Source of the DNA: Fimbriimonadales bacterium
GTDB lineage: Bacteria > Armatimonadota > Fimbriimonadia > Fimbriimonadales > ATM1
NCBI GenBank assembly: GCA_041744215.1
Contig: JBGTLG010000041.1
Coordinates: forward strand, 32,001 to 96,000
Direction of reading: 5' to 3'
DNA: 64,000 bases
Shown here: positions 18,772 through 30,765 of the stretch, piece by piece
Layout: each line of letters starts with the position of its first letter
Position numbering within the stretch: the stretch's first letter is position 1
Program-made: the position numbers and the translations under genes
The notes under the pieces: generated by a model
Seen by the model: the letters and a program-made list of their open reading frames with translations, nothing else
The model's database searches: none
What the model was told of the DNA's origin: nothing

Positions 18772-18865
18772 GGGGCCGGCTGGGGGCTGGTGTCTCCTCT
18801 GGTCTTCAAAACCAGTGCGGCGTCGCAAGGCGCTGGGTGGGTTCGATTCCCACACGGTCCCGCCA
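18772..18865 (+). tRNA. selC: tRNA-Sec (anticodon TCA)
   Basis: Extended acceptor stem, 6-bp D-stem with 4-nt loop TGGT, anticodon loop CTTCAAA (TCA at 18806-18808), long variable arm, T-arm GTGGG-TTCGATT-CCCAC, G discriminator and encoded CCA. Confidence 0.95.
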
Positions 18866-19028: not shown

Positions 19029-19099
19029 GACAGAAAAGGGCAATCCCCCGTGCGGGGAGCGCAAAGCCACGGGCCGTGAGGCAAGCCGGGTTGCCTGTC
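19029..19099 (+). ncRNA. c-di-GMP-I (GEMM) riboswitch, compact variant
   Basis: P1 GACAG/CTGTC; GGGCAA...P2...GCGCAAAGCC.CGGG..P3..GCCGGGTTGCC follows the class I consensus; G at the Vc2 G20-equivalent position. Confidence 0.8.
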
Positions 19100-20821: not shown

Positions 20822-20836
20822 TCGAGGAGGATGCCG

Positions 20837-22045
20837 ATGGGCGCTGTGGCTTTTGTGGCGTTCGATGGCTTCTATGTAGCCGCCTATTCGAGGTCGCACC
20901 CCGAGGCCGGAAAGTCAATCGTGGTGCTAAAGGACCGGAGAGTCATCGACGCTTCGGCTGATACGCGGCGCCTGGGTGTCGGACCTGGGATGACAGCAGC
21001 CGAGGCCAAATACACAGCACGTGGCTTTGAGACTGCCCCGATCTTTGTCGAATATCGCAACGAAGACTTTTTGCCGTTCTCCGAGAGCTATTTGAAAGTC
21101 TGCGCAGAATACGCGTCGGCCGTCGAGCCAGTAGCGGAACATTGCGCTTTCTTGGACCTCGGGTTGCTTGCTGGAGCGCGCGAGGTTGCTTATGCGCTGG
21201 CGGCTGATTTGTATCACGCAGTAAAGGTGTGCGCCCGTATCGGGATCGCGGAATGCAAACTGGTCGCAAAGATTGCTGCGGAGCGCGCCGTGGGCGACGT
21301 AGAAATCGTTGCTGCACGGGGAGATGAGGCATACATTGCTCCCCTTCCAATCGAATCGCTTTGGCGTGTCGATCGCAACTGCCTATTGCGACTACGAAAT
21401 CTTGGGTATCGAACTGTCGGGGAGGTGGCAGCTTTTGATGCTGCACTTCTGCGAAAGCATTTTGGAGACGAAGGCTTTCGTATCTCACAACTTGCGAAAG
21501 GGATCGACAGATCTCGGATTGAGAGCATCTATCCGCCCGATGACATCCGTGCGCAGTTTCACTTTCCGCAACCCGCCAGACTGTCGAGCGAGATTGAACC
21601 TTCGATATTCGATCTTGCGCGCACACTATCGGAGGAACTATCAGCGCGATCGCGCATGGCGAGCATCATTGAACTCGCTGCTACATTTGAAGATAGCTCT
21701 ATGCGCTTGACGTGCAGAGAATTTGCAAAGCCCATGCATACCTACGGCGCACTGCTAACTGGATTGCGTTTAACATTGCGGAACATAAACATTGATGAAG
21801 AATTGGCTTCTCTGTCGGTGAAGCTGAATAAGGTCGTCGCACTCGACACACGGCAAATCTCGATGCCAGGGACCTCAGCTGATGCCGGCAGCAAGGACTT
21901 GATTCTAGAATCAGCAGAACGTACGGCAAAACAACTGCAAGAAACGTTTGGTGAGGAGTCTGTGTTGCGTGCAAGCAACCGATTTGTTGAGCGAAGAGAC
22001 TTGCTCTTGCGCGCGTGGAAGGAGGCAACATCTTGGAGCGATTGA
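20837..22045 (+). CDS. imuB: ImuB-like catalytically inactive Y-family polymerase
   Basis: DinB-like sequence with the catalytic D (HVDMD becomes FVAFD) and the SIDE motif (becomes AEHC) lost; upstream of dnaE2; start chosen 6 nt after the SD. Confidence 0.75.
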   Translation: MGAVAFVAFDGFYVAAYSRSHPEAGKSIVVLKDRRVIDASADTRRLGVGPGMTAAEAKYTARGFETAPIFVEYRNEDFLPFSESYLKVCAEYASAVEPVAEHCAFLDLGLLAGAREVAYALAADLYHAVKVCARIGIAECKLVAKIAAERAVGDVEIVAARGDEAYIAPLPIESLWRVDRNCLLRLRNLGYRTVGEVAAFDAALLRKHFGDEGFRISQLAKGIDRSRIESIYPPDDIRAQFHFPQPARLSSEIEPSIFDLARTLSEELSARSRMASIIELAATFEDSSMRLTCREFAKPMHTYGALLTGLRLTLRNINIDEELASLSVKLNKVVALDTRQISMPGTSADAGSKDLILESAERTAKQLQETFGEESVLRASNRFVERRDLLLRAWKEATSWSD

Positions 22046-25000
22046 TTGCAAGATGGCGAGAGACTGGCAGGTGGTGGGAGGGAGAGCCTGAGCGCGAGTT
22101 CGCTCGTTTTCTCGATAATGATAACATCGTCCGCGAGTCTGTCCGCGAGCACACTTGTGTCATTCAACCAAAAAGACTAATGGTTAAAGAGGATGTGACA
22201 TTTGAAGTTGCCCGCACTGTCGACTACGAAGTGATAAAACGCGAAACTCGTGATTCGCGATTAGAATTGGAAAGAATCAATACCCTAAAAGCTTTGCCAG
22301 GTTCATCGAGTTATGTTCCACTGCATTGCGTTTCGGCTTACTCATTTGGCAGGAGCTCGCTTACTCCTGAGCGCATCGTGGCGAAAGCATACTTAGGCGG
22401 CATGCAATCCGTTGCGATGGCAGACCGTTTTTCGCTTTCAGGATCACACGCTTTCTGCAGCGCTGCGCGCGACATAGGAATCAAACCAATCATAGGGGCG
22501 AGCATTGAAATGGAGAGCGGAGGCGAGCTGGTTTTGCTTGCTATGAGCGCAGATGGCTATATCAATCTGTCTCGCTTGATCACTCGATGTCATCTCGATG
22601 AGCCGCGCCAGCACCCACTTTGCAACTGGGATCGACTGGCGGAGTATTCAGATGGTTTAGTTTGCCTGACAGGCGGGCATTACGGGCCCATAAATATTGC
22701 CCTTATCGGCAGGCAGCGACCAGCCGCACGCGATGCAATCCTACGCTTAAGAAAGATTTTTGGCACTGAAAGGCTTTATGTCGAAATTGAACGGTCTATG
22801 GCGCATTGGGAGCTGTCAGTCAACATCGCACTACTCGAGATAGCCAGCGACTTTGGCCTGCGCGCTATTGCCGGAGGAACGATCGCACACGAGCATAAGG
22901 ACACTTTCGCAGCACAAGATGCTCTCCTTTGCGCAGAGACACTCTGCACCGTTGAGGAAATCATTGGTCGAAAGCCACAGCGCCACGCAGACCAACCACC
23001 TATCAAGCCTCTCCCACTGCGTTGGATGAACGCCGAAAGACGGTTTCGCGATGGCAAAGAGTTTGAAGCGCTATTTCGAGATCACCCTGAATTGATCACA
23101 AACGCCAAGCAGATTGCCAGCGATGCGCCAGATTGGCCGCTACCAAATAGGCCGCCGTTTCCAAGCTTCGAAGACGCACCTGAATGCATTTTACGCAATG
23201 TTGTTTATGACGGCGCGGCACGAAGGTACTTTCACATGACTCCAAAGGTCCGCAAGCGGATTGACATGGAGTTGAAACGAATATGCGATTTGGGCTTTGC
23301 TAGCCATTTCCTAGCAATGTGGGAAGCCTGCAGATGGGCGAAGAGCCGTAGCATTTTGTATAGTGCACGAGGCTCGGTAGTCGATAGTGCAGCAGCATAT
23401 TGCCTTGGGCTGTCGCGCATTGATGCAATTGAGCACGACTTGCACTTCGACCGCTTTTTACCTGGGGACGGAAGCAAGCGACCGGACATTGACATTGATT
23501 TTGAAGCCAGTCGGCGAAATGACGTGCGTGAGTTTTTTGTGCGTCGCTACGGTCGCGAGCATGTGGCCGGCGTAGCAGCGATAGCAACGTATCAGGGCCG
23601 CGGAATCGTGCGTATGATTGGCAAGGCGATGATGCTTCCAGAAAGCGTCATCGATCTTCTTGCTAAGAGAATGCACGGTTCAGTTACAGGTAGGAATATC
23701 GAAGCTGCGCTGCTGACACGACCAGAACTAAGAGACAGTGGCATTCCGAAAGAGCGTTTTCTTCTGCTCTTTGAAATCGCGAGGCAGGTCGATGGTTTGC
23801 CAAGAGGAATCGCCGCGCACTCGTCTGGATTGGTTCTATCGTCCGTTCCCATTTGCGATACTGTTCCGGTCATGAATTCTGCACTCGGAGACGCGCCTAT
23901 CATACAATGGGACAAGTACTCTTCGAAGCACTACTTCGACAAGTTCGATATCTTGTGTCTAAGGGGGCAAGATGTTCTTGCTGGAACGCAGCAGCGAGTA
24001 CGCCTTAACTCCGGAGCCGACCTAAACGTTGAGCGCATACCATTAGATGACGAGATGACGTTCGAAGCTTTTCGCCAAGGCAATCTCATCGGAATTCCCC
24101 AAAGCGCGTCACCTGCCATGCGTCAAGCTCACATGCGATTGCGCACGCGCAATCTGCACGATGCGAGTTTAGTGCAGGCTGGGATTCGCCCAGGAGTAGG
24201 CGGAGCAGTGAAGATCAATGCGCTGATTCGCAGACGCAGAGGATTGGAGAATTACGCATATCCTCATCCTTTATTGGAAGAAATACTTGGGATGAGCTAT
24301 GGGATTATAGTGTTTCAGGAGCAAGTTGACCAGTTATTACAGGGATTCGCGGGATACACGTCAGGTGAGGCGGAGGAGATACGTGAGAAGATCCATAAGC
24401 TTCGCGCGAACGATTGGGGAGACACAATTCACGATGTTCTCATTGAAAGAATTCTCAGTCGTGGATTCTCCAACGAAGTCGCGGAGCACGTTTTTGATTT
24501 AGTCTCAGGTTTTCGCGGCTATGGCTTTGCGCAAGGACACGCACTATCGTTTGCGGAGATATCAATTCGTTGCACTTATCTACAAAACAACTACCCGTCT
24601 GAATACTTTGCCTCGTTGCTAACTTCTCAGCCAGCAGGATACTACGGACCAGGAACGATCGCCAATGAAGCACGCATTCGTGGCGTAAGAATATTGCCGA
24701 TCGATATCAATAGCAGTGATGAGATCTTTACTGCCAGCGACCGTGCAATACGCGTGGGACTGATGCAACTGCACGGCCTTTCCGCTCCAACAGCCCAGCG
24801 CATCGCAGGCAATCGCCCCTATCGATCGATCTTTGATTTTTGTGCGCGCGCCAAACCGAATGCTGAAGAACTTGAGTTTCTGATATTGTCTGGAGCTTTC
24901 GATACCCTGCACTCGAATCGCCGTGCGCTTTTATGGGTACTTCCTGAAGCGATCAAACTTGCACATGTTTCGACACCTGGCAATGTGCTCTTCGAGGATG

Positions 25001-25500
25001 AGCCAGTGGGCGTTGTTCCAGAAAATATATCCGACTTTTCGGCTTATGAAAAAGCCGTACTTGAGCGGGCAATGCTCGGCATGGACATTAAAGAGCACCT
25101 CATGTCATTCGAGCGCGATCGCATCAGAGGGAAAGGCGGTATCACTTGTGCTGACGCTGCCGTTCTTATGCCAGGAAAGAAAGTTGTCGTTTGCGGGCTG
25201 GCCATGCGGCTTAGATTTCCACCAACGGCGTCTGGACGGCGTGTCGTGTTTTTCGATTTAGAAGATGAAACCTCGCTGTTGAACGTTACATGCTTTGATG
25301 AAACTTATCAGCGCGACGGCCACGCAATCATATGCTCCCCATTTGTTACCCTGATCGGAACTAGTCAAGAACGTGACGGGCACCCCGCATTCTTAGCGCA
25401 CCGTGTTTTCCCTTATCGACTTAGCGCAGAGGCAGCCACCTTCGCCCAAGAGAGGCGGGCTGTGCATGCCGAAGATTTCATCATCAGAAAGGGGAGGTAG
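22033..25500 (+). CDS. dnaE2: Error-prone DNA polymerase III alpha subunit (DnaE2) with N-terminal extension
   Basis: PHP domain (LHCVSAYSF), ARGS, RPDIDIDF, YGFAQGHA, SQPAGYY, OB fold; TTG start after SD AAGGAGG, overlapping the end of imuB. Confidence 0.88.
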   Translation: MERLIARWRETGRWWEGEPEREFARFLDNDNIVRESVREHTCVIQPKRLMVKEDVTFEVARTVDYEVIKRETRDSRLELERINTLKALPGSSSYVPLHCVSAYSFGRSSLTPERIVAKAYLGGMQSVAMADRFSLSGSHAFCSAARDIGIKPIIGASIEMESGGELVLLAMSADGYINLSRLITRCHLDEPRQHPLCNWDRLAEYSDGLVCLTGGHYGPINIALIGRQRPAARDAILRLRKIFGTERLYVEIERSMAHWELSVNIALLEIASDFGLRAIAGGTIAHEHKDTFAAQDALLCAETLCTVEEIIGRKPQRHADQPPIKPLPLRWMNAERRFRDGKEFEALFRDHPELITNAKQIASDAPDWPLPNRPPFPSFEDAPECILRNVVYDGAARRYFHMTPKVRKRIDMELKRICDLGFASHFLAMWEACRWAKSRSILYSARGSVVDSAAAYCLGLSRIDAIEHDLHFDRFLPGDGSKRPDIDIDFEASRRNDVREFFVRRYGREHVAGVAAIATYQGRGIVRMIGKAMMLPESVIDLLAKRMHGSVTGRNIEAALLTRPELRDSGIPKERFLLLFEIARQVDGLPRGIAAHSSGLVLSSVPICDTVPVMNSALGDAPIIQWDKYSSKHYFDKFDILCLRGQDVLAGTQQRVRLNSGADLNVERIPLDDEMTFEAFRQGNLIGIPQSASPAMRQAHMRLRTRNLHDASLVQAGIRPGVGGAVKINALIRRRRGLENYAYPHPLLEEILGMSYGIIVFQEQVDQLLQGFAGYTSGEAEEIREKIHKLRANDWGDTIHDVLIERILSRGFSNEVAEHVFDLVSGFRGYGFAQGHALSFAEISIRCTYLQNNYPSEYFASLLTSQPAGYYGPGTIANEARIRGVRILPIDINSSDEIFTASDRAIRVGLMQLHGLSAPTAQRIAGNRPYRSIFDFCARAKPNAEELEFLILSGAFDTLHSNRRALLWVLPEAIKLAHVSTPGNVLFEDEPVGVVPENISDFSAYEKAVLERAMLGMDIKEHLMSFERDRIRGKGGITCADAAVLMPGKKVVVCGLAMRLRFPPTASGRRVVFFDLEDETSLLNVTCFDETYQRDGHAIICSPFVTLIGTSQERDGHPAFLAHRVFPYRLSAEAATFAQERRAVHAEDFIIRKGR

Positions 25501-25509
25501 AATGCCATA

Positions 25510-26001
25510 GTGGCCCACGCGGTCGCGCGCAACATGACAACAGAAGCCCCAAAGCAGATGGTCCACTACCTAACCGTTCAAGACATCCTCTGGATCAACC
25601 AAGAGGTGACCAATGAGGCCCAGCCTTTTAAGTACGCACAATTGGAAGAGGGCACCAACTTTCAGTATGGGTACGGAAAGAGCGAAAACGTACTCGCACA
25701 GGCAGGACAATTCATTCAGGGCTTCATAAGGCTTCGACCGTTCAAGGCAGGCAACCGCGCAACGGCGTTTATCGCGGTCCTCGCGTTCCTTAAGATCAAC
25801 GGTTACGACATCACATTGCCGCCGAGCGATGCAACCCAGTGGGTGATGAATGTTGCGGACAAAAAGCAGGCTGGGAACGACGCAATCGCGCAAGTCGCTC
25901 AACGATCAGAAAAGCCAATCGAGATTAGTCCGACAGTGCGCACAGTTGTCAAGGAGCTAACCGAAGAATACGCGGACACCGTCGAAGCGTTGAGAGATTA
26001 A
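25510..26001 (+). CDS. Fic/Doc family protein with degenerate motif
   Basis: YLTVQDIL.IN N-terminus; RPFKAGNRATA in place of HPF.DGN.R. Confidence 0.7.
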   Translation: MAHAVARNMTTEAPKQMVHYLTVQDILWINQEVTNEAQPFKYAQLEEGTNFQYGYGKSENVLAQAGQFIQGFIRLRPFKAGNRATAFIAVLAFLKINGYDITLPPSDATQWVMNVADKKQAGNDAIAQVAQRSEKPIEISPTVRTVVKELTEEYADTVEALRD

Positions 26002-27337: not shown

Positions 27338-28609
27338 ATGAGCTTGTTCGAAACCGAGCCCTCCGCGGACAAGATGCCGCTTGCAGCTCGAATGCGGCCG
27401 GAGTCACTGAGCGACTTCGTTGGCCAACAGCATCTGCTAGGGGTGGACTCCCCAATCAGGCAAGCACTAGAGCGGGGAGCACTGGGGTCTGTCATCCTTT
27501 GGGGTCCGGCAGGGTCGGGCAAGACAACTCTTGCGCGGCTTATCGCGCAACAGGGACAAGCCCACCTCGAAGCGTTGAGCGCAGTAACTGCAGGTGTCGG
27601 TGAGATTCGCAAGGTTGCCGACGCGGCAAAGCATCGCAGCAAATCAACGATCCTGTTCTTGGACGAGATACACCACTTTACGCGTACCCAGCAAGACTTT
27701 CTGCTTGGATTAGTAGAAGAAGGCCGGCTGACACTGATAGGAGCGACAACGGAGAACCCCACATTCAGCTTGGCGACGCCCCTTCTTTCCCGGTGTCGAG
27801 TGCTGGTTCTAAAGCCTCTAGCGGATGGAGAGATCGGTGCGATCACCCAGCGAGGTGCGCGAGAACTCGGCGTCGAGATAACTGCTGAGGCCCTGTCTAC
27901 AGTCGCCCGATTCGCAAACGGTGACGCCCGCGTCGCGCTCAATGCCGTCGAGTTCGGGGCTCAACTCGCACACCCATCGAGTGAGATTGGCATTGAGCAT
28001 GTGTCTCAGGCGCTGAATCGACCGCTGGTCCGATACGATCAAAAGGGCGGTCAGCACTACGACGTGATCTCGGCGTTCATAAAATCAGTGCGCGGAAGCG
28101 ATGTTGATGCTGCCCTGCATTACCTAGCGCGCATGATCAGGGCGGGAGAAGATCCACGGTTCATCGCCCGACGGCTCGTGATCCTGGCCAGCGAGGACAT
28201 CGGCAATGCCGCGCCGATGGGTTTACTGATCGCGATGTCTGCATTCCACGCTGTTGAGCGAATTGGGATGCCCGAGTCGCGGATAGTGCTGGCTCAGGCG
28301 ACGATCTTCTTGGCCGCTTCGCCTAAGTCGAACAGCGCCTACCTGGCGATCGACAAAGCGCTCGCAGACCTGGATCGAGTTCCGGCGCCGCGCATACCGG
28401 ACTACTTACGTGATGCCAATACAAAGCGGCACGACGTGGTCGTCGATGAAACGGGCTACCTCTACCCCCACGACTCGGGTGGCTGGGCTCGGCAGGAGTA
28501 CCTCTCTTCGGGTCATGGCCTGCTGCTACCGTACTATGTCCCGCTATCGACCGGATTCGAATCGAAACTCGGGTCATTCTTGGAATCACTCGACGAGACA
28601 CAAAGCTAA
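27338..28609 (+). CDS. rarA: Replication-associated recombination protein A (MgsA/RarA AAA+ ATPase)
   Basis: PLAARMRP, GPAGSGKTT, DEIH, GATTENP, SAFIKSVRGSD, ASEDIG.A, SPKSN, YLYPHD. Confidence 0.93.
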   Translation: MSLFETEPSADKMPLAARMRPESLSDFVGQQHLLGVDSPIRQALERGALGSVILWGPAGSGKTTLARLIAQQGQAHLEALSAVTAGVGEIRKVADAAKHRSKSTILFLDEIHHFTRTQQDFLLGLVEEGRLTLIGATTENPTFSLATPLLSRCRVLVLKPLADGEIGAITQRGARELGVEITAEALSTVARFANGDARVALNAVEFGAQLAHPSSEIGIEHVSQALNRPLVRYDQKGGQHYDVISAFIKSVRGSDVDAALHYLARMIRAGEDPRFIARRLVILASEDIGNAAPMGLLIAMSAFHAVERIGMPESRIVLAQATIFLAASPKSNSAYLAIDKALADLDRVPAPRIPDYLRDANTKRHDVVVDETGYLYPHDSGGWARQEYLSSGHGLLLPYYVPLSTGFESKLGSFLESLDETQS

Positions 28610-28952
28610 TAGAGGCCTCAACCTAGACGGACTTCGATTCCGCCGAAGCGGTCTCAAGTTCCGTTCGTTCCGGTTAGACCGGTAAGAATCTCTCAACGCG
28701 AACCTCCGAGTTGCCTCGGGTGCTTGCGGCTTTGACGAGAGATGCTCAACTCTTTCGAGCAACGTCCCAGGCAGAAGCCTCTAGTAGAGACTGCCGCCAG
28801 CTGCCTTCGAAATTGGGCGAACCCTCTTTCCCTGGCTTCGATCCGACTTGCGTCGGAGAATCGGTCATCGCGTGCTGACTCGGTTGCCCGAGTCTGCGGC
28901 TTCAACGTGATTCCGACTCTTGCGAGCCTTCGATGGTCCGGCGGAAGCCTCT
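28610..28952 (-). ncRNA. Unidentified structured ncRNA made of two tandem homologous domains
   Basis: Eight hairpins: five GNRA-capped (GCAA x4, GAAA), two UUCG-capped, one UCUAA-capped; each ~170-nt domain closed by a long-range stem; shared linker motifs and compensatory changes between the domains; candidate -10 element at 28965-28958. Confidence 0.8.
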
Positions 28953-29030
28953 GACGGAAGTTATAACACAGAAATCGGCGAATTGTGCGATTTTTGACAA
29001 GAAAAACGGTGTATTTTCACTCTTGGAAGA

Positions 29031-29061
29031 CTTCCCACAAGTTATGCACATCTTATCAACA
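29031..29061 (+). promoter_or_regulatory. Three head-to-tail DnaA-box-like 9-mers
   Basis: CTTCCCACA (29031), TTATGCACA (29042), TTATCAACA (29053) with 2-bp spacers, versus consensus TTWTNCACA. Confidence 0.55.
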
Positions 29062-29091: not shown

Positions 29092-30765
29092 TCAGTCGGC
29101 TGGGTTGTGCCGGATGTACAGCGACTCCGCAATTTTTGCAACGATGTAGACCACCACGACATTGGCGGCGACTGCAAACATCGCAATGAAAGGCGGCCAG
29201 GCACCCAGGAACAACAGTGGAATCACGCCTAGCATAGCTGGAGTCAGTGCCAGAACCGAGCCGAGCATCTGGATAAGCGCACGAAAGCTCCGCTGGGTCG
29301 GATCGTCCATGTCCGGAAAGAGCAGCAGGACGGCAAGTTGAACAGCGGTCACGACGACCGCAATCGATGGGAGTCCAATCGCGCCAGCGAGAGCAAACTC
29401 GTAGGCTGATGGCCTTGCAAGAAGCAGCGTGAGCGCGGCTAAGAGAGAGATGAGTATGGGAACTAGGCTATGCGCGATGATTTCGATAAGGCAGATTGAA
29501 AGAGGTGAGAACGGCAGCGGCTTCTGCAAGTCGACCCTCCTCAGCATCTCAAGAAAGCCCGATTGACCAATACCAAGAGCGAACGAGCCTATCAGCAGGG
29601 CCTGGAGAGGCAGGACGACTCCGACGAAACGATCGCTCGCGTCCAGAACTGCGAGCAATGATATGCCGCATGTCATTACAACGAAGAGGATCGTAAACGA
29701 AACCTGTGTGCGCATCACAAAGAGCGTTTCCCGCCACAGCATTGCGAACGGGCCCACGACCTTCGACTCCTGCAGGAAGCGGAGTCTTCGAACTTTGAGC
29801 CGCCCTTCTCTCGCCGCCTGAACAAAAGCCAGCCCGAGGTCGCCAGACCTTTGAACCTCCTGCCTGCCAAGACTCGCGGCGCTATGGCGCGCTGCCATGT
29901 CGTACAGGTGATCCGCCTGCTTGAGAGCGATTCCAATCAGAGTGACAGATCCTATCAGTAGGAAGCCTGCGCCTACAAGTCCCGACGTCCAATTCGCGTA
30001 GATTGGCATGAGGGCGAACTCAGCTGCGGCCGCGGCCGGGTACAGGATCAATCGGGTGGCGTCGCTCGAAGCAAGTTCTACCAGGAACTTAACCGTATCC
30101 TCCTGCCGAAATGCAGCAACGATCACGGCACCAAAAGCGAGTCCAAACGCGACAAGCACCGACAAGGTCGCTTTGCGTGCCAATCGTGCGGCGGATGAAT
30201 CGCGATTGATGAACATACCCAACGCATAACTTAGCGCAACACCAAACAACGAGACCAGCAGAAACGCTCCTATCATTGTCTTTCCGACCATGGGAGCGTG
30301 GGCGGGATCTGGCAGGTTCTCGAAGAGAAGACTGATTCCTTCGGCGCTTCTTCGGCCGCCGAAGATAAGAATGATGACCGGAACGAAGAGTGTGACCATG
30401 TAGTCGATGACAAATCGATGAGCCATGACGAGACGCGGAGAGATTGGTGTAGGAAACAGTACGTCTGAGTCAGCTTGCCGATAGGTTCCAGGCGGACGGA
30501 ACACGCCAAGGATGCGAAAAACAAGGACGAGCGCAAAAACAAGCAAAAACAGCGCAAAGACGAATTCGATCCCAGGAAGGGACAACTTCGGCATCCCGTT
30601 CGGGATCGGCTGGGGGCGCCGACCCTCGAACAGATTGCCGACGAACATCATAAACCACCAACCGATGATGAGAACTGCGCCGATCAACCGTGTTGGCGAG
30701 CGCAGCGCTCGCCTGAACGAGTTGATGACTGTTCGGGCTGTTAAGTGAACAAGCGGTTGCATCAA
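29092..30765 (-). CDS. Putative ABC exporter permease
   Basis: Many TM segments; overlaps the stop of the ABC ATPase gene. Confidence 0.75.
   Translation of the reverse strand: MMQPLVHLTARTVINSFRRALRSPTRLIGAVLIIGWWFMMFVGNLFEGRRPQPIPNGMPKLSLPGIEFVFALFLLVFALVLVFRILGVFRPPGTYRQADSDVLFPTPISPRLVMAHRFVIDYMVTLFVPVIILIFGGRRSAEGISLLFENLPDPAHAPMVGKTMIGAFLLVSLFGVALSYALGMFINRDSSAARLARKATLSVLVAFGLAFGAVIVAAFRQEDTVKFLVELASSDATRLILYPAAAAAEFALMPIYANWTSGLVGAGFLLIGSVTLIGIALKQADHLYDMAARHSAASLGRQEVQRSGDLGLAFVQAAREGRLKVRRLRFLQESKVVGPFAMLWRETLFVMRTQVSFTILFVVMTCGISLLAVLDASDRFVGVVLPLQALLIGSFALGIGQSGFLEMLRRVDLQKPLPFSPLSICLIEIIAHSLVPILISLLAALTLLLARPSAYEFALAGAIGLPSIAVVVTAVQLAVLLLFPDMDDPTQRSFRALIQMLGSVLALTPAMLGVIPLLFLGAWPPFIAMFAVAANVVVVYIVAKIAESLYIRHNPAD

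Follow-up and report, generated by a model that had tools for sequence, protein, structure and literature searches.

Comparison of a Fimbriimonadales genome with its relatives points to what is very probably a real RNA gene between rarA and an ABC exporter permease gene, and showed that its unit is a conserved, covarying module, predicted to fold independently and present in one to four copies. The gene is probably under the control of DnaA, and we tentatively favour, with slightly less than an even chance, a stand-alone RNA that would titrate a protein via an invariant loop, extra units adding sites. The RNA was confined to one Fimbriimonadales family, was not found in the sampled genomes outside it, and apparently represents an undescribed class of narrow range.

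Position and Parts of the Locus

The window analyzed here is a stretch of 64,000 nt (contig JBGTLG010000041.1, positions 32,001 to 96,000, of GenBank assembly GCA_041744215.1). A first-pass annotation had placed two tandem units with long closing stems on its minus strand, and this layout was recovered with unit 1 (U1) at 28952-28786 and unit 2 (U2) at 28782-28611, a total of 342 bases (28952-28611). Both units open with AGAGGCU and each is closed by a long stem; the linker between them has 3 nt, no own promoter was seen for U2, and, as annotated, the end of U2 adjoins the rarA stop. The features of the locus are as follows.

27338..28609, plus strand: rarA/mgsA, replication-associated AAA+ ATPase (Pfam MgsA_C, 2e-56), convergent neighbour
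28596..28610, minus strand: T-rich tail (8 T in 15), possible transcript end, overlapping the rarA stop
28611..28782, minus strand: U2, 172 nt, fold z -4.7, architecture as U1
28725..28732, minus strand: invariant AAGCCGCA element of U2, from the arm alignment
28786..28952, minus strand: U1, 167 nt, fold z -4.3, closing stem P1 with P2-P5 inside
28895..28902, minus strand: invariant AAGCCGCA element of U1, from the arm alignment, proposed binding site
28927-28916 and 28760-28749, minus strand: GCUC-GNRA-GAGU hairpins
28960..28970, minus strand: extended -10 element TGTGTTATAAC (TGTG-n-TATAAC), predicted start at 28952, the first closing-stem base
29031..29061, minus strand: three DnaA-box-like 9-mers, head-to-tail with an 11-bp period, array upstream of the start
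29092..30765, minus strand: ABC exporter permease gene (Pfam ABC_export), upstream, a neighbour not kept beyond the genus

Within U1 the closing stem P1 encloses a GCAA hairpin (P2), a long arm carrying the invariant loop and a GCAA cap (P3), a second GCAA hairpin (P4) and a UUCG-capped arm (P5). The GCUC-GNRA-GAGU hairpins, the AAGCCGCA elements and the UUCG-capped arms were present in both units as annotated, and the extended -10 element lies at 28970-28960 as described. The hairpin loops had been said to read GNRA or UUCG on the minus strand; the third hairpin of U2 has a CUA/UCUAA loop instead of a tetraloop. The AWCGAA sequence and the precise letters of the final arm, given as common elements, occur in U1 and U2 and are not kept across the family.

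Elsewhere in the window, all on the plus strand, are a selenocysteine tRNA gene (18772-18865), a c-di-GMP-I riboswitch match (19029-19098; 37.3 bits, barely above the gathering score), and ImuB-like (IMS) and DnaE2-like polymerase genes (20831-25500), which together make up a cassette for error-prone repair at a distance of 3 kb from rarA and are followed by a short gene with a Fic/DOC domain (25510-26001).

Distribution, Copy Number and Genomic Context

Homologues were identified by DNA search, rarA synteny and a covariance model. The search of related genomes that had been suggested as a check returned homologues in 17 of the 20 genomes of the family, with 32 units at 18 loci; these loci come from 17 related genomes of nine genera and are not independent. 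One unit was present in eight genomes (G003, G005-G008, G009, G012, G014), two in seven (G000, G016, G017, G001, G002, G015, and G004 at two loci) and four in two (G018, G019). No unit was found in G010, G011 and G013 (73, 94, and 65% complete); G011 is an unpublished genome on which its unit-negative status, the count of 6S-positive genomes (8/20) and the positive control of the 6S model all depend. Since genomes carry one, two or four units, the unit is the module of the gene and not half of an obligate two-domain fold. The earlier idea of a function needing two domains was not supported: in 8 of the 17 genomes a lone unit has a promoter of its own, another two genomes carry four units, and no pairing between units is predicted (summed inter-unit pairing probability of U1 and U2, 0.0008).

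Outside the family the whole-unit model (R1) had no match in the other families of the order (131 genomes), and the core-arm model (R3; 69 positions, noise floor 16-24 bits) gave only noise-level matches in the 151-genome samples of order and phylum. Of the best other R3 matches 41 were inspected; all lacked both a DnaA box and a closing stem that convinced, and most of them, including the top two (29.6 and 27.3 bits), lay in long open frames. One core-model match without the invariant motif, at 1501-1570 of locus L292 (G342), is an intergenic-looking stem-loop with a strong internal palindrome. A further 88 loci, mostly around rarA of other taxa, yielded no convincing match; the model search outside Armatimonadota covered rarA-adjacent loci. 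Run over 401 genomes of the phylum, a loose three-motif pattern did not exceed its reversed control in number of matches and was discarded. With a strict pattern there was a single match in metagenome contigs, a chance one within a coding region, and none in viral contigs, an absence that says little because the pattern demands a P2 loop which only some units have.

The genome under study has a single locus, which speaks against the dispersed REP/MITE-like repeat that had been named as a refuting possibility, and only G004 has a second one. The RNA gene converges on the 3' end of rarA in 11 of the 17 genomes, lies 1.5 kb upstream of rarA in three and is located elsewhere in the rest. Upstream neighbours varied, and most loci were without a co-oriented protein gene downstream. 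This context (convergent rarA or varied neighbours), together with the lack of any match to an Rfam aptamer, agrees with the earlier judgement that the RNA is not a 5' riboswitch. The proposed Rfam comparison gave nothing at gathering score in the region, with one chance match upstream (E 8.4), and the RNA is, as had been held, neither RNase P nor tmRNA, whose genes were found elsewhere (310.7 and 179.7 bits, respectively); the same genome has a partial SRP-like match on another contig. In G004 the two copies (L023, L090), each of two units and with its promoter, are almost identical and lie far apart; the one linked to rarA is divergent from the RNase P RNA gene. A tRNA gene follows the single long unit of G006-G008 (L098-L100) on the same strand after about 60 bases or less.

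Fold and Conservation of the Unit

The minus strand of region 28605-28960 had a fold z-score of -6.31, with none of 100 shuffles equally stable; for the plus strand the values were -1.73 and 6 of 100. Fold z-scores of 22 units ranged from -2.3 to -10.2. That U1 and U2 are homologous, as claimed from the outset, was confirmed by 62% identity and a global alignment score of 115 vs 42 +/- 9 for shuffles (maximum 66, n=200). The closing stem has about 14-20 pairs and ends in GAGGC/GCCUC or in a compensated variant, including GAAGGC/GCCUUC, GAGGUC/GACCUC, and GGGGUU/AACCUC. In the predicted folds P2, P3, P4 and P5 are arranged around one junction, or a four-way junction is nested on a three-way junction. 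In one genus insertions in P2 lengthen the unit to 240-260 nt.

An alignment of 11 units had 89.5% of its cells paired vs 76.8% in shuffles, and double changes in 25 of 35 pairs vs 12.1 in shuffles, a count reached by none of 500 shuffles. The alignment was made from sequence only, and the significance of its covariation is overstated because the counted structure was derived from those same, related, sequences. In the terminal hairpin of P3 all six pairs covary across 19 units. The earlier suggestion of a stand-alone structured non-coding RNA was supported, and homologues with covariation were found. A small protein was rejected as the product of the locus: the open frames differ between G000 and G016, and the length of unit 1 differs by one base.

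The core of the invariant element, AGCCGC, does not vary in the 19-unit arm alignment, in which the facing strand varies, and it is present in 30 of the 32 units, in two of these at a non-equivalent place in truncated fourth units. No conserved pairing partner was found for it within the unit; two GC pairs proposed for it hold in only 59% of the cells of the 19-unit arm alignment, and in several units folding programs pair part of it locally. About eight nucleotides are invariant outside the closing stem, all on one strand, and the junction nucleotides are not conserved. Among the 121 predicted hairpin loops of the 32 units, 75 on the sense strand were GNRA (55), UNCG (14) or CUUG (6), as against none of 121 on the antisense strand.

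Similarity between units of the same array is only 55-67%, and four-unit arrays have shortened second or fourth units. The unit tree, which omits 10 of the 32 units as truncated or near-duplicate, was mostly poorly resolved, and only the pair in G015 hints at a duplication of its own (support 87/75).

Promoter and DnaA-Box Array

In 17 of the 18 loci the closing stem is preceded at 11-13 nt by a hexamer, TAnnnT or TATAAC, which often has a TG extension. In 16 of the loci the last stem is followed by a T-rich tail that counts at least 6 T among its first 15 nt. With this hexamer before the first stem, the tail after the last and linkers of only 3-5 bases between units, we infer that each array is one transcript driven by one sigma-70-type promoter. 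A generic promoter and terminator scan at the locus found neither element.

The strongest functional clue lies at 29061-29031, outside the coordinates of the first-pass annotation. The consensus of the DnaA box is TTWTNCACA, and the middle one of the three 9-mers upstream of the start (29061-29053, 29050-29042, and 29039-29031) matches it exactly. An exact box occurs within 200 bp in 16 of the 18 loci, in a single orientation and at -87 to -123 from the start, accompanied by weaker neighbours head-to-tail at 11-12 bp; the RNA loci of G001 and G018 have one-mismatch boxes only. The genome under study (2.68 Mb) contains 69 exact boxes, or 0.005 per 200 bp. As controls, boxes were found in 4 of 238 AT-rich windows, in none of 14 6S promoters and at neither the RNase P nor the tmRNA promoter.

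When this genome was scanned for triple arrays, with a weight matrix built on 37 sites that include the three of the RNA locus itself, the RNA promoter ranked first (32.3) and the promoter upstream of nrdR and of the large reductase-like gene after it (nrdJ) second (22.6), followed by an overlap of the first, a 23S rRNA site, and one other, with the cluster before recF in sixth place. For the nrdR array, G000 and G016 have a clear version, G019 a degenerate one and G002, G006 and G009 none (exact in two of six family genomes); an nrdR promoter with 9-mers at an 11-12-bp period is also found in G209. Tandem boxes were present in one of five genomes from the largest sister family, G209, with two instances in all, one of them before nrdR; at its locus L329 tandem boxes precede a cytosine DNA methyltransferase-like gene. 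The same 9-mers form origin-like clusters in G423 (with TAC repeats, before carB) and G418 (before recF), which identifies the 9-mer as the DnaA box of the order and puts the likely origin of the genome under study before recF. The densest box cluster of that genome, a likely origin, is at C41:177950-178150, before a recF-like gene and far from dnaA. The dnaA gene was present in all five genomes searched; in the genome under study it is on another contig (C40) and has no box cluster. At C41:170644-171706 (minus strand) there is a gene whose P-loop resembles DnaA/Hda-type ATPases, with DnaA-box-like sites upstream near 171973.

A published form of the DnaA-box consensus is TTATCCACA, and E. coli nrdAB is under DnaA control via boxes in its promoter (PMC8203912). 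Like the promoter of nrdAB and that of nrdR-nrdJ here, the RNA promoter has several boxes upstream, the difference being that the controlled gene is an RNA; the main text of PMC8203912 does not contain the terms 'non-coding' or 'small RNA'. On this pattern DnaA control of the RNA is probable, although an 11-bp direct repeat could serve another regulator. A gene placed behind binding sites of the replication initiator suggests an RNA level that would follow the cell cycle.

Alternative Explanations

The unit RNA could be imagined as a diverged 6S-like RNA polymerase decoy, that is, a 6S duplicate left at rarA and amplified where the canonical 6S was lost. It shares with 6S a stand-alone gene of 150-200 nt with a terminal closing stem, a sigma-70-type promoter, rarA as a neighbour and possible tandem copies: 6S adjoins rarA in lactic acid bacteria and B. 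subtilis (PMC8414754) and lies directly upstream of it, co-oriented, in the sister-family genomes G417, G419 and G430, and tandem co-transcribed 6S genes (the ssrSAB operon) are known in the B. cereus group (PMC7726162). An order-level 6S model found 6S in 8 of the 20 family genomes and left it undetected in all 10 genomes of seven genera, among them the nine genomes with multi-unit arrays; G008 gave a weak match of 22.9 bits. The genome under study has no room for 6S at its site between a PilZ-like gene and pyrG, and a weak 6S-like match in it was rejected, since it falls within a long open frame on the other strand. Where present, the 6S of the family is short (~150-158 nt) and no longer at the rarA site. 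Against a decoy, five genomes (G005, G006, G007, G009, G014) have both a canonical 6S and the unit; RF00013 did not match at the locus; the order-level model (R2), run with filters off, gave its control 6S 124 bits, with no unit rising above noise, and the unit model in turn does not match 6S genes. Units are without the conserved GAGCCGA template helix and the open central bubble and have four arms instead of a rod, and the 6S promoters are free of DnaA boxes (0/14), unlike that of the unit RNA. Neither 6S nor the unit RNA was detected in the largest sister family (40 of 40 genomes), from which it follows that loss of 6S needs no substitute, and the rarA tree does not settle how many independent events lie behind the pattern. 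The unit RNA is not a member of the 6S family, and we regard such a decoy, working in the way of 6S, as unlikely.

Assembly of RNA alone, in the manner of OLE, ROOL and GOLLD, would have units dock via tetraloops and two- and four-unit genes represent covalently linked oligomers. Large bacterial RNAs do form homo-oligomers by A-minor and kissing contacts (PMC12286853), and the many GNRA loops and the copy numbers of one, two and four fit; the low similarity within arrays (55-67%) and the shortened second and fourth units do not, no conserved self-complementary loop was seen, and the word 'tandem' is absent from the main text of PMC12286853. This arrangement is unlikely. The Rfam models of OLE, ROOL, GOLLD and raiA did not match; with these RNAs and the raiA motif the unit RNA shares an intricate, tetraloop-rich make-up, a presumably independent transcription and a biochemical role that is not known, and it differs in its smaller module, repeated within the gene, and its restriction to one family. 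Quite improbable is a small-molecule-binding or catalytic RNA, for instance a sink for nucleotides in step with replication: an invariant internal loop amid complex junctions would resemble aptamers or ribozymes, and the kind of promoter is shared with ribonucleotide reductase, but the few invariant nucleotides are on one strand amid unconserved junctions, neither an expression platform nor a downstream gene is present, and Rfam riboswitches and ribozymes gave no match at E up to 10. The two-site ligand binder and the ribozyme-like fold suggested in the first-pass annotation likewise gained no support here. A cis element, either a replication origin or a terminator or antisense control of rarA, would account for DnaA boxes adjoining an AT-rich stretch and for a last stem that in several genomes abuts the rarA stop or runs into it. 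It is nevertheless very improbable, since the genome has its densest cluster of boxes 117 kb off, before recF, where the origin-like cluster of G418 is also found, the RNA locus has neither unwinding repeats nor room for them, G004 has two copies, and 7 of the 18 loci are not convergent on rarA; in G019 the GC skew was a noisy signal with no readable switch. The RNA locus is not the origin.

That the invariant loop might pair with helix 45, at the 3' end of 16S rRNA, and the RNA so act on 30S maturation or storage, was noticed after the fact. The sole site that could pair with the 7-mer is the helix-45 strand beside the anti-Shine-Dalgarno sequence, in four of four family 16S genes, yet the match needs a G-U pair, as the family 16S reads GUGUGGCU, and about 0.4 such sites per 16S would be expected by chance, as estimated from the size of the pattern. 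The helix-45 strand is moreover paired in the mature 30S subunit, and we consider this pairing highly improbable. No conserved site for the loop was found in RNase P, tmRNA, SRP or dnaA 5' regions.

Proposed Function and Significance

For the favoured reading, a DnaA-regulated RNA that titrates a protein, the following course of events is suggested. The module, as the comparison of genomes shows, is a multi-branched fold of 160-260 nt whose closing stem begins at the predicted start site. DnaA, judged from the box pattern, probably binds the array some 90-120 bp before the start, as it would at the nrdR-nrdJ promoter, and the amount of RNA would then track the state of DnaA and the replication cycle. 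In each module an internal loop, held by a hairpin with a tetraloop cap, would present the invariant AAGCCGCA on one of its strands as a putative site for one protein partner, leaving the facing strand and the helices free to vary. The RNA may titrate or scaffold this partner, for which a factor linked to replication or growth state is the most plausible candidate; with tandem modules each transcript would offer more sites, as in sponge RNAs. The sponge RNAs CsrB and RsmZ titrate protein with repeated short GGA hairpins on one transcript; the proposed working, with repeated binding modules that titrate a protein, would be common to both, and the difference lies in a multi-junction unit of 170 nt with an AGCCGC internal loop in place of short GGA hairpins.

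The literature covered, which comprised sources other than subscription journals and supplementary motif tables, contained no structured RNA of Armatimonadota and no DnaA-controlled non-coding RNA, and a term search of the main text of PMC11109978 was without match; the supplementary motif tables of discovery papers or motif sets outside Rfam could contain the unit RNA. The reach of the finding is limited to one family, known from metagenome-assembled genomes. Large intricate bacterial RNAs are few and most are without a function, and this one offers two rare handles, namely a regulator that can be read from the promoter (DnaA) and natural versions with one, two and four units, which set the minimal module and leave a single invariant loop as the target for mutation. 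It is possible, though doubtful, that the RNA represents a new regulatory class in replication control, in which DnaA would switch on or off a modular RNA whose one to four domains each capture a factor; this factor may belong to replication, the cell cycle or transcription, with feedback on DnaA or, in lineages without 6S, a replacement of 6S as possible outcomes. If DnaA control is true, the regulon of the replication initiator in this family would include a non-coding RNA.
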